Shown one piece after another: positions 1 through 51,833 of a stretch of DNA of 59,311 bases. Below the pieces are notes generated by a model that ran no database searches, was not told the origin of the DNA, and saw only the letters and a list, made by a program, of their open reading frames with translations. Every line of letters starts with the position of its first letter. Within the stretch, counting starts at the first letter, position 1. Source of the DNA: Patescibacteria group bacterium (GTDB taxonomy: Bacteria; Patescibacteriota; Minisyncoccia; Phycocordibacterales; WO2-35-19); assembly GCA_038056395.1 (NCBI GenBank), contig JBBUFS010000006.1:1-59311 (forward strand). Reading direction: 5' to 3'. Both the position numbers and the translations under genes were made by a program.

Positions 1-184
1 TCGGACGGCCCGGAATTTTGGCTGATTGTTTTTCCACTAACTCCTCAATAATGTTTAGATTATTTTGTTTCGCAAAGGCGCGCAATTCTGTGATTTGCGC
101 TTCAATGCTCAAAATTTGTTTATCCTCTACATCAGTGGATTTGCGGGCGTACAAAAAGAATTTTTGCAATTGATTATTGTTCAT
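1..184 (-). CDS. Serine recombinase (resolvase/invertase/integrase superfamily). Only the N-terminal 61 codons are present; the gene runs off the left edge.
   Basis: The minus-strand ATG at 184..182 opens MNNNQLQKFFLYARKSTDVEDKQILSIEAQITELRAFAKQNNLNIIEELVEKQSAKIPGRP. The YxRxS nucleophile motif, SxExQ and SAKxxxRP spacing match the serine-recombinase catalytic domain. It is truncated, so it is absent from the ORF track. Confidence 0.6.
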   Translation of the reverse strand, partial: MNNNQLQKFFLYARKSTDVEDKQILSIEAQITELRAFAKQNNLNIIEELVEKQSAKIPGRP

Positions 185-301
185 AAATTTTGTAAATTAT
201 TAAAACTTAAATGGCCGCCCTTGGTGCGCTCAACTCGATTGCTCAAGCTGAATCCAAAGACGGCCATTAAAATAAGAAATCGAATCGTTGAGCGCAAATT
301 C

Positions 302-310
302 ATTATAGCA
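302..310 (-). promoter_or_regulatory. Extended -10 box (TGCTATAAT on the minus strand) about 110 nt upstream of the recombinase ATG
   Basis: Plus strand attatagca is the reverse complement of TGCTATAAT. The same nonamer precedes the R-M gene, gyrA, clpB and a pilin gene in this window. Confidence 0.35.
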
Positions 311-466
311 AAAATTCTTTTTTGGGGCAAAGCAAATACAAAAATCGCAAGGGATTTCGAACCTCCGCTTGGCCGCGCGCGAAGCGCGCGGAAACCCCCA
401 AAATCAATGGGCGGCGCTGTGCGCCGCCCACGAAATGGTTGGTCAAAAATCCGAAAGTCAAATCTT

Positions 467-761
467 GGAGTATATTTATGATTTCGCTCGAACCTACTTT
501 ATCAAAAATTCCTAAAAAAATCCATTCGTTCCGCCCCGCCGCCCGCCGCCGATTACGGCGGCCTGCCTCGCAGAAAAATTTTCTCTACATTTTTTATTTT
601 GCGCGCGCCGGTTTTTTCTTCTAAAAGGAAAAGAAAATTTTTCTGCTTCGGCTTCCGCGCTCAAAGCGCGGGGCGGCGGGGCTTCGCTTCGGCTCGCGGG
701 CAAAAAGGAAGGGGGTTGGGGGGAAGGAATTTTTGCCCGCTCGCCCGCTCTTTTTGGCGGC
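467..761. repeat. Left copy (IR-L) of a 295-bp GC-rich inverted repeat
   Basis: Its reverse complement equals 3212..3505 apart from one homopolymer-length difference (A7 at 514..520 vs T6 at 3453..3458). ORF-track peptides from the two copies are identical (e.g. RAPVFSSKRKRKFFCFGFRAQSAGRRGFASARGQKGRGLGGRNFCPLARSFWR). Confidence 0.95.
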
Positions 762-806
762 TAAAATTACTTAACAACCCACGCACTATCCGAAATAACT
801 ATTATT

Positions 807-815
807 TGCTATAAT
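807..815 (+). promoter_or_regulatory. Extended -10 (TGCTATAAT) 8 nt upstream of the R-M gene ATG; implies a leaderless or near-leaderless mRNA
   Basis: tgctataat at 807..815, ATG at 824, and no Shine-Dalgarno sequence between them. Confidence 0.4.
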
Positions 816-823
816 ATACATAT

Positions 824-3208
824 ATGGAAACCTCCTCTAAAAAACAAGATCAAAATTTGGCCATCTTGAAAGATTTGCATTCGGAAGAGGATGTCAAGGC
901 AAAAATAGTTATACCTTATTTCAAGAAGCTCGGATATAAAGACGAGCAGATTTTCTTGAATGTACCGATTAAGGCATTTTTAGGGCGGCAATCTAAAACC
1001 GTCTATGCCGATTTGGTTATTAGAGATGGTGCAAATCCAATTATTATTGTTGAGGTTAAGAAACCGGGAATCCAACTTGATGAAATTCACAAAGAACAGG
1101 CAATATCTTATGCTCGACAATCCGAGAGGGTTGTTCCGATTGCTGTAGTAACCAATGGCATTTCTTATAAGATTTATAATGTAAAGACGAAGCAACAGAT
1201 TCCAGAGATTCCGAAAAAATCAGACCTGATTTCCTTCCTCTCGGAAATAAAAATTAGCAAAGAGGAAATCGAAGAAGCTGGCCGTTTCATTATCGAGGGC
1301 TATGAAAATGTACAGGAGATAAAAGTGGCGTTGGACAAGTGTCACGATATTATTAGAGGTAACGACGGCCTTGATCCTATAAGTAGTTTTGACGAGGTTA
1401 ATAAACTTATTTTTGCGAAAATACAAGAAGAAAATCGTGCAAAGAAAACGGGTGTAAACCGCTTTACAAGGGATTTTATAAAAGATAACGCAATTGAGGA
1501 AATAAATCGCATTTTTCAAGATGCTAATGATGATTTCGGAATCAATAAAATTTTTACCAGTGATGAAAAAATTAAATTGAGTTCAGCAACCCTTATATCA
1601 ATTGTTGGGATATTAGAGCAGAAAGCGATTTCTCAAACAAAAGATGACCTCATCGGATTAGCTTATGAATCTTTCTTACCCTCAATTTTCAGAGGTGAGG
1701 GACTGGGGCAATTCTTTACTCCTGACAGGATTAAAGAGTTTATGATCGAGATACTCGATCCGCGAGTTGGTAATCTGATTATTGATCCGGCTTTCGGTAG
1801 CGGTGGTTTTTTAGTATTGTCGTACAAAAGATTGCTTGGAAATATCAAAAGTAGCAACTGGAATCAGACTAAAAAGGACGAAGAAAAATCAAAACTATCT
1901 TCGGAGTATTTGTATGGTATTGAAATAAACTCTCGATTAGAAATTGCGTGCAAAACAAATATGTATTTACACGGCGATGGACGAACAAAAATTTATAGAG
2001 GTAATGGATTATTGGACACGGACGACATAGAAGAAGGAAAATTTGATATTGTTGTTACAAATCCGCCTTTCGGCGCAAAAATAGATAAAGAAGAAATTTT
2101 GAATAAGTTTGAATTAGGAATCAAGCGGAACAAGCAACAATCAGAAGTTTTATTTTTGGAGCGTTGTGTGCGATTAGCCAAGCCGGAAACAGGACGAATT
2201 GGAATAGTGTTACCAGAAAGCGTATTGATGAACACCAACTTTCAACCAGTACGAGATTGGCTTGATCAGAATGTTACGATTGATGCCATTTTTAAGATGC
2301 CGAGTTACGCCTTTAGTCCTTCGGGCGCATCAGGAATTCAGACAAGCTTGGTCTTTTTGACTAGAAGAAAGCCCACCTCTTTTGATTATAAAATTTTCAT
2401 GGGCAATGTAACTAAAATTAGTTTTGACGCAAATAATCGTCCAGACGAAGATTATTTTCCTAACGCCACTTGGCACTATCAAGAATTCAAGGTAAAGAAT
2501 AAGGAAATGTTTGATGATGATAATTATTATGTCATCAAGAGAAATGACGGTGAATTATTGTCAGTAAATTTCTATAAGCCAAAATATCTTAAATTGCTTA
2601 AAAAAATCCGTAAAGAAAAATATTTAAGACTGGAAGATATTTTGAAGAAAGATAAATATTCCATTGTTGATGGTCCGTTTGGCACCCAACTTCATGTTTC
2701 CGATTATAAAACCGAAGGAATCCCAGTCCTTCGGGTAAAAAACATTGGGATAAACGAATTTATCAACAAGGACTTGGTCTATATCTCGAAAGATAAGCAC
2801 AAGGAATTGATTAGAAGTAGAGTCAAAAAAGGCGACATTCTAATAGCTAAAACTGGGGCGACATTCGGTAAGGCGTGTTTATTTCCAGATGATCTTTTTC
2901 CAGAGGCAAACATTACTGCCAGTTGTTGCAAGATTAGTGTTGATCCCAGCAAAGCAAATCCATATTTTGTTGCAGAGCTGATAAACTCCCCAGTCGTTTA
3001 TAGTCAGTTGGAGCGTTATTCTCAAAAAGCCGCACAGCCAGGATTTAATATGATAGAGTTAAGGAAAGTTATCATTCCCGATATTCCACTTGAAAAACAA
3101 AATCAGATAGCGGATAGTATTAAAAAACGGAAAGGATTGATCAAAAAACTTAAGCTACAAATTAACTCCGAATCAAATATGATTAAGGAGGAGATTGATA
3201 ATTTGTAG
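824..3208 (+). CDS. Single-chain restriction-modification enzyme (Type IIG-like). It combines an N-terminal PD-(D/E)xK nuclease-like HsdR_N-type domain, a gamma-class N6-adenine DNA methyltransferase and one HsdS-like target recognition domain.
   Basis: N-terminus YADLVI...IIIVEVKK (D...ExK). Methyltransferase motif I IDPAFGSGGFLV and motif IV VVTNPPFG. The C-terminal ~200 aa (GDILIAKTGATFGKA...AQPGFNMIELRKVIIP) resembles a type I S-subunit TRD. Confidence 0.8.
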   Translation: METSSKKQDQNLAILKDLHSEEDVKAKIVIPYFKKLGYKDEQIFLNVPIKAFLGRQSKTVYADLVIRDGANPIIIVEVKKPGIQLDEIHKEQAISYARQSERVVPIAVVTNGISYKIYNVKTKQQIPEIPKKSDLISFLSEIKISKEEIEEAGRFIIEGYENVQEIKVALDKCHDIIRGNDGLDPISSFDEVNKLIFAKIQEENRAKKTGVNRFTRDFIKDNAIEEINRIFQDANDDFGINKIFTSDEKIKLSSATLISIVGILEQKAISQTKDDLIGLAYESFLPSIFRGEGLGQFFTPDRIKEFMIEILDPRVGNLIIDPAFGSGGFLVLSYKRLLGNIKSSNWNQTKKDEEKSKLSSEYLYGIEINSRLEIACKTNMYLHGDGRTKIYRGNGLLDTDDIEEGKFDIVVTNPPFGAKIDKEEILNKFELGIKRNKQQSEVLFLERCVRLAKPETGRIGIVLPESVLMNTNFQPVRDWLDQNVTIDAIFKMPSYAFSPSGASGIQTSLVFLTRRKPTSFDYKIFMGNVTKISFDANNRPDEDYFPNATWHYQEFKVKNKEMFDDDNYYVIKRNDGELLSVNFYKPKYLKLLKKIRKEKYLRLEDILKKDKYSIVDGPFGTQLHVSDYKTEGIPVLRVKNIGINEFINKDLVYISKDKHKELIRSRVKKGDILIAKTGATFGKACLFPDDLFPEANITASCCKISVDPSKANPYFVAELINSPVVYSQLERYSQKAAQPGFNMIELRKVIIPDIPLEKQNQIADSIKKRKGLIKKLKLQINSESNMIKEEIDNL

Positions 3209-3211
3209 CTG

Positions 3212-3505
3212 GCCGCCAAAAAGAGCGGGCGAGCGGGCAAAAATTCCTTCCCCCCAACCCCCTTCCTTTTTGCCCGCGAGCCGAAGCGAAGCCCCGCCGC
3301 CCCGCGCTTTGAGCGCGGAAGCCGAAGCAGAAAAATTTTCTTTTCCTTTTAGAAGAAAAAACCGGCGCGCGCAAAATAAAAAATGTAGAGAAAATTTTTC
3401 TGCGAGGCAGGCCGCCGTAATCGGCGGCGGGCGGCGGGGCGGAACGAATGGATTTTTTAGGAATTTTTGATAAAGTAGGTTCGAGCGAAATCATAAATAT
3501 ACTCC
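3212..3505. repeat. Right copy (IR-R) of the 295-bp inverted repeat
   Basis: Reverse complement of 467..761. It starts 3 nt after the R-M stop codon and ends 6 nt before the prfB ATG. Confidence 0.95.
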
Positions 3506-3511
3506 CAAACT

Positions 3512-4402
3512 ATGGATAAACAAGAAACCGAGCAAAAAATAAAAGGACTTGAGAAGGCGATGGCCAGCGCTGATTTTTGGGATGATAAGGAAAAGGCACA
3601 GGCTGTTATAAAAGAAATTCAAAAACTCAAAGATGAGTTGGAAGGAATAGGACAATATGATGCGGGGGATGCGGTTATGACAATTTTTTCCGGCGCCGGA
3701 GGAGATGACGCCGAAGACTTTTCGGCTATGCTTTTGAGAATGTACTTCAAATATTTTGAAAAAATGGGATGGGGATATTCTGTCTTGCATGAAAATCAAA
3801 ATGATAATGGAGGGTATAGAAATATAACTGTTGAAATTTTAGGTAAGAGCGCCTATGGAATACTTAAGAATGAGTCGGGTGTTCATCGATTGGTGCGTAT
3901 TTCTCCATTTAACGCTAATGCAAAAAGGCACACCAGTTTTAGTATGGTTGAAATTATTCCCAAGTTTGAAAAGCAAAATGAAAAAGATATTGAATTAGAT
4001 GAAAAAGATTTGAAGGTAGAACTTTCACGCTCATCAGGTCCAGGCGGCCAAAATGTAAACAAAAGAGAAACGGCCGTGCGGATAGTTCATTTGCCGACAA
4101 ATCTTTCAGCACAGGCAGATGGGGAGAGGAGCCAGGCCCAAAATAAAGAAAAAGCTCTGGCAATTTTGAAAGGCAAGATTTATAAAGCTTTGGAAGATAA
4201 AAGAATAGAAAAGCGGGAAAATATGTATATAAGTAAAACCACTGAAATAGAATGGGGCAGCCAAATCCGCTCTTATGTCCTGCATCCTTACAAAATGGTC
4301 AAAGACCACCGCACCAATGTGGAAACCTCTGATGTCGAATCTGTCCTTAACCAAGGCAATCTGGATAAATTTATAGAGGCAAAAAAAAATTTGTCTCGCT
4401 AA
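3512..4402 (+). CDS. prfB: Peptide chain release factor 2, short form (296 aa)
   Basis: SPF stop-codon recognition tripeptide (RISPFNANAKRHTSF), GGQ motif (SSGPGGQNVNK) and C-terminal WGSQIRSYVLHPYKMVKDHRT. Confidence 0.9.
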   Translation: MDKQETEQKIKGLEKAMASADFWDDKEKAQAVIKEIQKLKDELEGIGQYDAGDAVMTIFSGAGGDDAEDFSAMLLRMYFKYFEKMGWGYSVLHENQNDNGGYRNITVEILGKSAYGILKNESGVHRLVRISPFNANAKRHTSFSMVEIIPKFEKQNEKDIELDEKDLKVELSRSSGPGGQNVNKRETAVRIVHLPTNLSAQADGERSQAQNKEKALAILKGKIYKALEDKRIEKRENMYISKTTEIEWGSQIRSYVLHPYKMVKDHRTNVETSDVESVLNQGNLDKFIEAKKNLSR

Positions 4403-5174: not shown

Positions 5175-6113
5175 ATGGAAAAAACAGAATTTAAAACAAA
5201 ATTAAGAAGAATAACCAAAGCAGGTTTTTTTAATTTTTGGCGGAGCGGCTATGTTTCTTTTGCTTCAATTTTGGTGATGGTTATCACTCTTTCAGTTATC
5301 GGCTCGGTTATTTTTGTCAGTGCCGTTTTAAATACAACTATGCAGGAATTGCGCAATAAGGTTGATATCAACGTTTATTTTATTACTACTGCCGCGGAAA
5401 ATGATATTCTTTCCTTGAAAACAAAGATAGAGGCTCTGCCTGAAGTAAAAATGGTGGAATACACAAGCCGAGAAAAGGCCTTGGAAAATTTCCGGCTGCT
5501 GCACGAAAATGACCAGATTACTCTGCAAGCTCTAGAAGAATTGGGAGACAATCCGCTCGGAGGATCACTGAACATAAAAGCCAAAGAGCCGTCTCAATAT
5601 GAAGGCATTGCCAATTTTCTGAATGAAGAAAACATTCTTTCCAACGAAGGCAATAAAATAATTGACAAGATTAATTATTTTGAAAACCGAACTGCCATAG
5701 ACAAACTTTCCCGCATCATAGATTCGGCTGAACGCCTTGGTTTGGCCATCTCCTTGGCTTTGGTGCTTGTTTCAATCATCATCACTTTCAACACCATTCG
5801 CCTAGCCATTTATATTTCCCGCGAAGAGATTTCAGTGATGCAACTGGTTGGCGCCAGCCGAAATTATATCAAGGGACCTTTTGTGGTTACCGGAGTGATT
5901 GTCGGGCTTATTTCAGGGCTGATTACCATGCTCTTATTCTTTCCCATTTCCTACTGGCTCGGCAGTACCACCCAAAACTTTTTTATCGGCTTCAATATTT
6001 TTGATTATTATTTAGGCAATTTCTTTGAAATTCTTTTCATAGTTATCGGTTCTGGCATTATCATCGGGGCTCTATCAAGCTTCTTGGCCGTTCGCAAGTA
6101 TTTAAAGTTGTGA
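5175..6113 (+). CDS. ftsX: Cell division permease-like protein FtsX
   Basis: N-terminus KAGFFNFWRSGYVSFASI, a large extracytoplasmic loop and three C-terminal TM helices. Operon partner of ftsE. Confidence 0.85.
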   Translation: MEKTEFKTKLRRITKAGFFNFWRSGYVSFASILVMVITLSVIGSVIFVSAVLNTTMQELRNKVDINVYFITTAAENDILSLKTKIEALPEVKMVEYTSREKALENFRLLHENDQITLQALEELGDNPLGGSLNIKAKEPSQYEGIANFLNEENILSNEGNKIIDKINYFENRTAIDKLSRIIDSAERLGLAISLALVLVSIIITFNTIRLAIYISREEISVMQLVGASRNYIKGPFVVTGVIVGLISGLITMLLFFPISYWLGSTTQNFFIGFNIFDYYLGNFFEILFIVIGSGIIIGALSSFLAVRKYLKL

Positions 6114-9340: not shown

Positions 9341-9967
9341 ATGAAAAGTTATATTTGGATAGGAGGCATAATTGTCATTTTAATCGCTCTGATGTTTTTG
9401 AGTGCAGGCGGGTCAGATATTAAACCGCTCTTTAAAGTGGATGCGGTCCATCCGCTGGATAATGTCAAAGGCAATGCCAGTTCATCGGTGTTGATAATAG
9501 AATACAGCGATTTTGAATGTCCGGCTTGCCGCACCTATTATACAATAATGAGAGAACTGCTGGTAGAATTCGGAGATAAAACAACTTTTGTTTACCGGCA
9601 TTTTCCCTTGATTGGCATTCACGCTAACGCCGAATTCGCCGCGCGGGCGGCAGAGGCGGCCAGCAAACAAGGCAAGTTTTGGGAGATGCATGACTTGCTT
9701 TTTGAAAAACAAAACGAGTGGGCCAAGGTGGCCGATGTTGAACCGATGTTTGAATCCTACGCCGTTCTTCTGGGAATATCGGTTGAACAGTTTAAAACGG
9801 ATTGGCAATCCAAAGCCGTCAAGGATTTTGTGAAAGTCCAAAGGTCAAATGCTACCAAATTGGGGCTTCAGGGTACCCCTTCATTTTTTATCAATGGCAA
9901 GATAATCCAAAATCCGAATTCAGTTGATGCTTTTAGAGCTGTAATCAAAGAGGCTTTGGGTAATTAA
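9341..9967 (+). CDS. DsbA-family thioredoxin-fold oxidoreductase, membrane anchored
   Basis: N-terminal TM helix, CPAC active site (DFECPACRTYY) and FFINGK near the C-terminus. Confidence 0.8.
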   Translation: MKSYIWIGGIIVILIALMFLSAGGSDIKPLFKVDAVHPLDNVKGNASSSVLIIEYSDFECPACRTYYTIMRELLVEFGDKTTFVYRHFPLIGIHANAEFAARAAEAASKQGKFWEMHDLLFEKQNEWAKVADVEPMFESYAVLLGISVEQFKTDWQSKAVKDFVKVQRSNATKLGLQGTPSFFINGKIIQNPNSVDAFRAVIKEALGN

Positions 9968-48954: not shown

Positions 48955-49146
48955 ATTTGTGCCACTTGTCGTCACGGATAATTTCGTTTTTGTCAAAACG
49001 AAATTTCCGCGACCCCCACCCACATCGCCTTGCGAAGCATGGCGGGTAGGCCGCCTCGCCATTTTTACCTTTGCTTCGTAAAACAAAAATATAGCTCCGG
49101 CTCGGACAAGCCAAAAAATTCAAAGCAGTTTGATTTTTTTGGCTTG

Positions 49147-49219
49147 TCCGCCCACCAGGAATCGAACCTGGGACCGTCTGCTTAAGAGGCAGCTGCTCTA
49201 CCAGCTGAGCTATGAGCGG
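49147..49219 (-). tRNA. tRNA-Lys (anticodon CTT), CCA not encoded
   Basis: Acceptor CCGCTCA/TGGGCGG (C1:G72), D arm GCTC-AGCTGGTA-GAGC, anticodon loop CTCTTAA, T arm CCAGG-TTCGATT-CCTGG. Confidence 0.8.
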
Positions 49220-49261
49220 ATACTTATTATTTTATTTTCAAATTATTTTTTAAATAATTCG

Positions 49262-49287
49262 GTGTCTCTATTGTACCAAGCTCGCAC
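49262..49287. repeat. 26-nt repeat gtgtctctattgtaccaaRctcgcac, copy 1
   Basis: 25/26 identical to 59250..59275. The minus strand reads TTGGTACAAT (extended -10 shape) about 35 nt upstream of tRNA-Lys. Confidence 0.8.
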
Positions 49288-49432
49288 TTACTTTAGCAGA
49301 AATTTGTGAGAATGAGAAATGAAAGAATGGCGGTTGAAAGATTGACCGAAATGACTTATACTTAAGATGCTCAAAGCTGGCGGCGGCAAAAATTATTAAG
49401 GTAAAGAAAAATTAATTTTTTAATTTAAATAT

Positions 49433-51809: not shown

Positions 51810-51833
51810 GAGAAAGTTTTTTCCAAAAATTTG

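Follow-up and report, generated by a model that had tools for sequence, protein, structure and literature searches.

Islands and prophages mobilised by large serine recombinases (LSRs; enzymes of the A118/phiC31/Bxb1 type, SprA of SPbeta, CcrAB of SCCmec, XisF, and TnpX/TndX) encode a recombinase of ~500 aa with resolvase, recombinase, and zinc-ribbon parts, insert site-specifically with a very short core, and, in the SCC elements, carry variable cargo. Their recognition motif lies further from the centre in the element site than in the host site (PMC3783163). Islander-type islands and the tycheposons of Prochlorococcus insert at tRNA 3' ends, have a tRNA-like far end, and, as small islands, spread accessory genes in streamlined genomes (bioRxiv 10.1101/2020.12.28.424599). 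The locus described here resembles both groups in these respects, the size and domains of its recombinase being judged from relatives. It occupies the left 3.5 kb of a 59,311-nt stretch of DNA from a Patescibacteria group bacterium (contig JBBUFS010000006.1 of assembly GCA_038056395.1; the whole stretch is called the window below), where two long inverted repeats enclose a fused restriction-modification (R-M) gene between a serine recombinase gene and prfB. We consider these 3.5 kb to be probably the distal part of a small LSR-mobilised integrative island of candidate phyla radiation (CPR) bacteria, which carries an inverted duplication of two adjoining arms, U and T, with its attachment (att) site at the U/T boundary.

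The U arms, an inner copy on the minus strand (IR-L, 467-761) and a distal copy on the plus strand (IR-R, 3212-3505), were confirmed as inverse complements by self-comparison of the window. They are 295 and 294 nt long, their sole mismatch is a homopolymer (A7 at 514-520 vs T6 at 3453-3458), and the identity breaks off sharply at either end; a 295-bp repeat with a 99.7% match is beyond chance. The outer end of the arm is a pseudo-tRNA 3' end (t*; 467-520 in IR-L), which in IR-R faces prfB. The arms are rich in hairpins, their G+C content rises to 0.69 (100-nt windows) against 0.40 window-wide, and a TATACT box at 3498-3503 has its mirror copy at 469-474. An earlier note on this DNA, made from the letters alone, had already read the repeat with its one homopolymer difference, the G+C-rich, hairpin-laden arms, and the mirrored box, and was right in each; the T-run palindrome gcgcgcgccggtttttt (601-619), which it took for a terminator, is present, but a terminator scan made no call there. 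No third copy of the repeat was found within the 59-kb window. Searches of Rfam (the whole window at gathering thresholds and 200-3600 at E-value thresholds) returned only tRNAs and chance matches, and at neither setting did the arms match a described RNA family; their single-strand folds are better than those of shuffled sequences to a modest degree only (z = -2.4 and -3.3).

Independent contigs agree with this arrangement. L008 and L009, prfB-bearing contigs from other samples, start within the distal U arm and run on into that gene. An identical R-M protein is encoded on seven Hainich groundwater contigs of 2450-2673 bp, which consist of the unique segment plus at most one k-mer of arm and so terminate at the repeats or a short way into them. 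There is thus a real repeat in two copies. Because short-read assemblies break at the repeats, the orientation of 762-3211 is not fixed by overlap.

The serine recombinase gene beside IR-L, noticed in the earlier note, is indeed there: its ATG is at 184 on the minus strand, 283 bp outside IR-L, and the window holds its 5' end of 61 codons (1-184), the rest being beyond the left window edge. The segment 2-184(-) matches PF00239 (Resolvase) and contains the YARKST catalytic motif of a resolvase domain with a serine nucleophile. A putative promoter of this gene, TTGCCC-17-TATAAT with a TG extension at 302-330(-), was called by a consensus scan only. Relatives with 81-97% identical N-termini carry a large C-terminal part, which in the window gene would lie beyond the edge, and the relatives in GTDB genomes are mostly intact open reading frames (ORFs) of 470-580 aa. 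In frameshifted relatives (L015-L017), a 107-aa Resolvase ORF is followed by a 377-aa ORF with Recombinase and Zn_ribbon_recom domains (PF07508 and PF13408 in L015/L016). The closest full-length relative, L018, matches CcrB over residues 1-459 as well as the XisF model, and its ORF matches the A118 and SPbeta integrase structures. As judged from these relatives, the window recombinase is an LSR of the A118/SPbeta/Ccr type and not an invertase of the Hin/Gin/Cin type; the Hin-type identity that the earlier note had considered is ruled against by the length of the relatives.

A protein search with the 61-aa fragment gave only proteins of 56-107 aa among the best 120 matches, and a family of truncated or split LSR genes was therefore considered; it was rejected, since most GTDB copies are intact ORFs of full length, and the short matches are contig-end fragments, frameshifted copies (L014-L017), and one IS110-disrupted copy. 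The decayed copies are of several kinds: in L014 (7017-7340) the gene has suffered a 1-nt deletion, in L015 (1439-2940) it is split by a frameshift into the 107- and 377-aa parts (also in L016 and L017), and in L098-L107 a variant has an IS110 insertion after codon 85, which recurs across many samples, on at least 24 contigs (94 index blocks). In the widely sampled P0006 variant, the LSR is dead and all ten places show one arrangement. A prophage origin was also rejected: no LSR relatives were found in the IMG/VR viral contigs, and no phage genes were present among the island cargo examined.

With one genome scanned per species, the LSR gene was found in more than 533 genomes of GTDB, almost all of them CPR/Patescibacteria. 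We compared 84 loci, that is, 80 fetched loci plus L014-L017, and found a recurrent layout, which runs from the flank through U, a cargo of 1-7 kb, inverted U (U'), T, the LSR gene, and inverted T (T') to the 3' end of a tRNA gene, so that U and T form two adjoining near-perfect inverted-repeat pairs. The near-perfect T pair (51-219 bp) surrounds the LSR gene in 61 of the 84 loci, and in 49 of the 84 a tRNA gene 3' end adjoins T2, the arm at the LSR 3' end; the target tRNAs span a dozen amino-acid specificities. The second pair, U (119-324 bp, near-perfect), surrounds 1-7 kb in at least 21 loci, wherever the upstream DNA sufficed, and its inner copy adjoins T1 with an overlap of 2-6 nt. Most remaining contigs stop a k-mer's length into U, as a repeat longer than k would lead one to expect. 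The window fits this layout, with IR-R as U1, the R-M gene as the bracketed DNA, IR-L as U2, and 357-470 as T1. The functional link between recombinase and repeats that the earlier note supposed is upheld.

T1 (357-470, minus strand; GC hairpins at 407-431 and ~365-385) is the inner member of the T pair around the LSR gene, and its partner T2 is expected at the LSR 3' end, outside the window. Translation of the plus strand at 357-476 yields LSR residues 468-507 a second time (82.5%), so that T1 repeats the 3' end of this gene in inverted orientation. Window 1-470 and L014 are 95.5% identical, and their match breaks off exactly at the CCA end of a tRNA-Thr; this places the edge of the LSR unit at window 466-470, where IR-L has its outer end. 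In the LSR loci (L018-L097), the LSR ORF usually runs through the T arm and over the att junction into the antisense strand of the tRNA gene, and the C-terminal tail of the protein would, by prediction, differ between the integrated and the excised state. An ORF at window 322-624 (+), a mirror copy, reads from T into U. Two isomers occur: the LSR 3' end lies beside the tRNA in ~49 loci, and the LSR 5' end does so in L014, L046, L049, and L065. The U arms are 98-100% identical within genomes and strongly diverged between genomes, a pattern that implies recombination or conversion between the arms, as far as sequences tell.

The insertion site in the window was identified through prfB (3512-4402, plus strand; RF2 of 296 aa with PCRF and RF-1 domains), which is chromosomal flank outside the island and begins 6 nt after the right arm. 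Among 80 relatives of this gene (L108-L187), at least 17 have a tRNA-Thr(CGT), sometimes (GGT), on the same strand, ending 0-15 nt before the prfB start; in L108, whose prfB is the closest (85% identical), the sequence reads ...GATGGCTCCA-AAT-ATGGATAAACAAG. In L031, L097, and L095, the distal U arm borders on a tRNA array, at the 5' end of its next tRNA. Because relatives have these empty sites, the whole unit from distal U arm to T arm is one insertion at a tRNA 3' end; a specific host site and its unoccupied form in relatives are both present, as in islands of this kind. The U end adjoins prfB in L120 as well, and ~7 of the 80 relatives have contigs that break no more than ~250 nt before prfB; occupation of the site seems to be recurrent. 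RF2 has only ~296 aa in the window and its relatives, where no upstream frameshift segment is present. With the tRNA so close in many genomes, transcription from its promoter may normally extend into prfB. A promoter at the t* end (TTGATA-16-AATCAT, called at 478-505(-) and 3467-3494(+)) was considered and is a weak candidate, its spacing not being conserved elsewhere.

These results sharpen what the earlier note had proposed for this end of the locus. Its suggestion that mobile DNA had landed directly upstream of prfB is confirmed by the empty sites in at least 17 relatives, and of its mobile R-M cassette at prfB the mobility stands, while the unit proved to be a larger island that includes the LSR gene and a second repeat pair. 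The target was the 3' end of tRNA-Thr(CGT), which precedes prfB in relatives, and not prfB. What the note had named as fatal to its idea, namely a recombinase belonging to an element with att sites of its own, is essentially what was found, with the twist that one att-type junction coincides exactly with the outer end of IR-L.

The anatomy of this junction is informative about the att site. The U repeat begins at 467, and similarity to the L014 T arm extends to 470, so the two pairs have in common GGAG on the plus strand (467-470), or CTCC on the tRNA strand, which is the 3' end of tRNA-Thr/Gly among the target genes; we propose it as the crossover core, with a putative crossover position. On the minus strand t* reads TTGATAAAGTAGGTTCGAGCGAAATCATAAATATACTCC, and the outer ends of U arms follow the consensus ...TTGATAAARTARGTTCGAGC-N-GTAAAnAnA-CWCCA. 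t* is conserved beside the T arm in ~40 loci, and only its last ~5 nt (CTCCA, CACCA, or TACCA) co-vary with the target tRNA. From GTTCGA, the tRNA T-loop motif, to the CCA end there are 28 nt in t* and 24 nt in real tRNA genes (32 of 34 loci). In serine integrases, the motif of the zinc-ribbon domain is found in both attP and attB, and lies ~5 bp nearer the centre in attB (PMC3783163). Because the 4-nt offset of GTTCGA agrees with this published rule, t* resembles an attP-type half-site. We infer that the attB half-site is the tRNA T-arm plus acceptor end, and that t* is the attP-type counterpart; the offset known from LSR elements is seen in one half-site only.

We propose that the island carries a long inverted duplication, R, which consists of U (295 bp here) and T (~114 bp here), with an attP-like site at the U/T boundary, made of the t* half-site on the U side, a short core (CTCC), and then the T arm. 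A putative circular form would have the order R, LSR gene, inverted R, and cargo, and its junction sequence would equal the internal U/T junction. The LSR would recombine one R copy with a tRNA 3' end, here that of the tRNA-Thr(CGT) normally found just before prfB. The R copy used would be split, with T staying at the tRNA and U moving to the far end against prfB (IR-R), and the other R copy would remain whole inside the island, as IR-L joined to T1. One split and one intact R would account for the two abutting inverted pairs, that of the cargo and that of the LSR, and the possible use of either R copy for the two integration isomers. The tRNA-like sequence at the far end would then lie in direct orientation to the tRNA, and the arms may serve as outward promoters or insulators. 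In L019 (41-1992) and L036 (7757-9584), the T-LSR-T unit stands alone between convergent tRNA 3' ends (Tyr/Leu and Val/Leu) and has no U arm, which suggests either chromosomal inversion through the internal site or independent T-LSR-T mobility; in a single element, the intact internal site would have recombined with a second tRNA, as a secondary inversion.

The cargo segment of the window (762-3211, plus strand, 2450 bp), a free-standing contig in seven other Hainich assemblies, holds a single long ORF between the arms (824-3208), whose stop codon (3206-3208) is 3 nt short of the right arm and which has an extended -10 box, TGCTATAAT (807-815, plus strand), read directly from the sequence. By domain and structure matches, the 794-aa product has an HSDR_N_2 domain at residues 21-126 (PD-(D/E)xK-type nuclease-like), an N6_Mtase domain at 273-531 (gamma-class N6-adenine methyltransferase with NPPF; this part is HsdM-like), and one HsdS-type target recognition domain at ~600-785; its closest solved relative is RM.BsaXI. 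With nuclease, N6-adenine methyltransferase, and target recognition in one chain, as in fused Type IIB/IIG-like enzymes, it is predicted to be a fused single-chain R-M enzyme, and the single self-promoted nuclease-methyltransferase-recognition gene of the earlier note is upheld.

Homologues of this R-M gene with 78-87% amino-acid identity occur in metagenome-assembled genomes labelled Saccharibacteria, Moraniibacteriota, Parcubacteria, and Omnitrophota (L010 6001-8367; L011 6001-8352; L012 4057-6387; L013 4473-6821), a spread over four phyla that points to recent horizontal transfer, judging from the sequences. Nucleotide similarity between the window and these four genomes is restricted to the R-M ORF, and no long flanking inverted repeats are present around the homologues. 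L010 and L011 have ~100-150 nt of upstream promoter region in common and a hairpin with a C-rich loop directly after the R-M stop, and L011 has a 36-nt inverted repeat of 83% around the gene (5737-5772/8437-8472). Arms of the same kind as in the window surround unrelated cargo at no fewer than 21 other loci. Because the homologues in four genomes are without arms and the same arm type surrounds unrelated cargo, the repeats are not a property of the R-M gene. Cargo elsewhere includes R-M genes, a reverse-transcriptase module resembling a diversity-generating retroelement (DGR-like), radical-SAM, aminoacyl-tRNA synthetase-like, and ABC transporter genes, and membrane proteins; L021, L041, and L072 have near-identical U arms and different cargo, and cargo gene direction varies between loci. 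The R-M gene is, on this comparative evidence, interchangeable cargo with its own promoter.

Most U arms also contain a hairpin, H, which lies at 696-740 in the left arm of the window (stem GCGGGCAAAAA/TTTTTGCCCGC, C-rich loop on the minus strand) and at 3233-3277 in the right one, where the plus strand has the C-rich loop. Its loop is a homopyrimidine mirror repeat, TTCCTTCCCCCCAACCCCCTTCC; the stems vary between loci, the loop is conserved, and its orientation differs among loci. We counted 38 copies of H in 756 kb of LSR loci and 1 in 565 kb of control CPR DNA (5.0 vs 0.18 per 100 kb, a 28-fold difference). Just inside the perfect repeat, each of the two ends of the cargo has a small hairpin of its own, followed by GCGCCGC (L030, L055, L072, L041, L021, and L031). 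GCCAGCGAAGCTGGC lies on the distal side in every case and ATTTCGCTTTGCGAAAT on the recombinase side, with unrelated cargo between; the sides are fixed in three subfamilies (6/6, 2/2, and 2-3/3 loci). A variant junction was seen at the L001 3' end (2527-2673) and the L005 5' end (1-75), which come from different assemblers, and L002 2527-2602 was also compared: the inner part of the arm, cut in the H loop (..GGGCAAAAATTCCTTCC), is joined to the R-M promoter module (CACGCACTATCC..TGCTATAAT..ATGGAAAC). In L001, the promoter module is followed by a different ORF (METNDITNWLTRVEARVIKLE), and in L002 the hairpin loops on the left and on the right have the same orientation. A search for the R-M promoter module by exact pattern found nothing in GTDB species representatives, among which the source genome is not included.

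Several observations weigh against the island as proposed. T2 and the tRNA-Thr predicted left of the window lie outside it, so that for this locus the island is argued from homology with other loci. Neither a circular form nor an excision product was seen, the circle junction having the same sequence as the internal U/T junction. The T-side half-site is without GTTCGA, which makes the proposed attP asymmetric. The solo T-LSR-T units of L019 and L036 are more simply explained by two nested elements, and the conservation of H, the near-100% identity of the R copies, and the L001/L005 junctions are left unaccounted for.

A more far-reaching reading is an integron-like system. Here the U arms, H, and the LSR would form a platform that captures and exchanges self-promoted modules at the hairpin, with the R-M gene as a cassette and the Hainich variants as snapshots of exchange, and the internal site would re-target tRNAs and invert chromosome segments. 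As with integron cassettes (attC), variable single-gene modules lie beside a recombinase with a conserved boundary hairpin, and one CPR variant junction falls inside the hairpin loop. Unlike integrons, the CPR loci have a serine-type recombinase only, with no tyrosine integron integrase, and their cargo is self-promoted; the evidence for exchange at a hairpin site consists of two contigs. We regard this reading as unlikely.

A second alternative supposes two nested elements: a U-ended cargo element that mimics tRNA 3' ends, and a 1.8-kb T-LSR-T unit that inserts in tail-to-tail tRNA-like half-sites, formed by cargo element and tRNA or by two convergent tRNAs. It draws on the perfect terminal inverted repeats of the T-LSR-T unit, on the solitary occurrence of this unit between convergent tRNAs in L019 and L036, and on the fact that either end of this unit always adjoins a tRNA-type half-site, real or pseudo. 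It also predicts cargo units beside tRNAs without an LSR gene, which were found at 0 of 316 tRNAs in the fetched DNA, an LSR-biased sample, and T1 never adjoins ordinary flank DNA. Moreover, its attP (T'/T) would lack the GTTCGA of the targets, and its target would mix two half-site spacings (PMC3783163). We judge nesting to be quite improbable.

For phase variation by inversion, an alternative raised in the earlier note, the known models are Hin, Gin, Cin, and Pin. These are invertases of ~190 aa with a C-terminal helix-turn-helix, which act on 26-bp sites with a Fis-bound enhancer and switch promoters or gene ends. As in those systems, a serine recombinase gene adjoins a segment with inverted repeats, and it might flip 762-3211 and change the read-through into prfB or the recombinase gene. 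An att-like half-site lies at each arm, and the internal site and the distal junction point in opposite directions, which makes inversion geometrically possible; the LSR segment faces the tRNA with one end or the other, depending on the genome, cargo genes face either way in different loci, and the 98-100% arm identity implies ongoing recombination between arms. Unlike Hin/Gin/Cin/Pin, the CPR locus has an LSR (470-580 aa in relatives), 295-bp repeats, and a single complete gene that has an extended -10 box of its own, so that inversion would not switch its expression. LSRs of this class normally recombine attP with attB, and not identical inverted sites (PMC3783163), and the same arms bear unrelated cargo, including housekeeping-like genes. 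The fixed polarity of the cargo-end motifs (6/6, 2/2, and 2-3/3) would be unexpected if the segment flipped freely, and it argues against free inversion of the cargo, although inversion may take place at some rate. No contig with the opposite orientation was recovered, and such assemblies cannot show one; the inner junctions are identical both ways. On balance a phase-variable cassette has, in our view, a small chance of being correct.

That two copies of a dispersed repeat, resembling a miniature inverted-repeat transposable element (MITE), mobilise the R-M gene as a composite or foldback transposon is suggested by the long, structured, G+C-rich inverted repeats around a horizontally transferred gene. 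In 59 kb, however, there are only the two arms and one short remnant, H is nearly absent from the control CPR DNA, the arms keep a fixed position relative to the LSR unit, and R-M homologues elsewhere are without arms, all of which makes a foldback transposon very improbable. A mis-join producing the inverted repeat or the R-M placement is just as hard to credit: repeats longer than the k-mer do break all other assemblies of the region, so that these do not fix the orientation of the middle segment, but the graph of independent contigs gives each U end two neighbours (LSR side and prfB at the outer end, both ends of the R-M segment at the inner end) and admits the inverted-repeat solution only, and the same architecture is found in at least 21 independent genomes with different assemblers.

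The proposed LSR-mobilised island can be compared feature by feature with described elements. As far as can be judged from sequence, it behaves as a tRNA-inserted island of a serine integrase would, with those defining features of that class that are open to testing, and the defining features of a Hin-type segment, a dispersed foldback repeat, and an integron are absent. It differs from described LSR elements in that its proposed att site lies inside an inverted duplication of 200-500 bp, with the consequence that an intact inverted copy of the site stays in the integrated island; in that its LSR gene lies between perfect inverted repeats that include the gene's own 3' coding end; in its use of many different tRNA genes; in its size of 3-9 kb, its lack of further mobility genes, and the absence of a recognisable directionality factor; and in a tRNA mimic offset by 4 nt. 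Unlike tRNA islands of the Islander and tycheposon kind, its far end is this conserved 4-nt-offset mimic and not a displaced tRNA fragment, and its cargo repeats are inverted, long, and near-perfect where theirs are short and direct. Four of these features, namely the att-bearing inverted duplication, the retained internal site, the LSR 3' end within the repeat, and the offset tRNA mimic, set the CPR island apart from described LSR elements.

Two more distant systems bear on parts of the proposal. The yeast 2-micron plasmid has a tyrosine recombinase, FLP, and two 599-bp inverted repeats that separate two unique segments, and its inversion serves copy-number amplification. The putative CPR circle would be alike, by analogy only, in that two site-bearing inverted repeats separate the recombinase segment from a second segment; the 2-micron plasmid is a replicating plasmid of a eukaryote, unlike the CPR islands, which are without replication genes and for which inversion is putative. 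In Thermococcales, an integrase causes chromosomal tRNA-tRNA inversions (PMC5495485), and a similar reaction between the element site and another tRNA would explain L019 and L036. The enzyme there is a plasmid-borne tyrosine integrase of archaea (PMC5495485), in contrast to the CPR event, which is deduced from end states. A full-text literature search, partly aimed at att-site structure, found no such elements described in CPR bacteria, in line with the earlier note's statement that the architecture is undescribed, and recombinases, tRNAs, and inverted repeats go unmentioned in a 2025 paper that deals with the genomic islands of groundwater Patescibacteria.

Traces of further islands were also observed. 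Window 49261-49310 is a solo remnant of a U-arm outer end (GGTGTCTCTATTGTACCAAGCTCGCACTTACTTTAGCAGAAATTTGTGAG), the first 20 nt of which are identical with the pseudo-tRNA end of L066/L060-type elements, and it precedes the 5' end of tRNA-Lys(ctt) (49146-49219(-)) by 42 nt. No hairpin H, partner arm, or recombinase was found near it, nor was a partner found near the tRNA-Leu at 51833; it is probably the scar of a second island. L098 has two junctions of pseudo-tRNA end and T arm (5240-5423 and 9763-9889) that point the same way and are separated by 4.5 kb with an IS1595 transposase, and looks like an older, decayed island plus a younger one, in tandem accretion at tRNA-Phe.

CPR bacteria (Patescibacteria) have tiny genomes and few recognised mobile elements, together with clear horizontal transfer. 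The candidate natural attP/attB pairs of these islands, with their many tRNA targets, bear on how LSRs discriminate attP from attB, which is relevant to genome-engineering tools. With islands in more than 500 species-level genomes and cargo of 1-7 kb, the element described here would be a major unnamed vehicle of gene transfer in these bacteria, including the transfer of defence genes.

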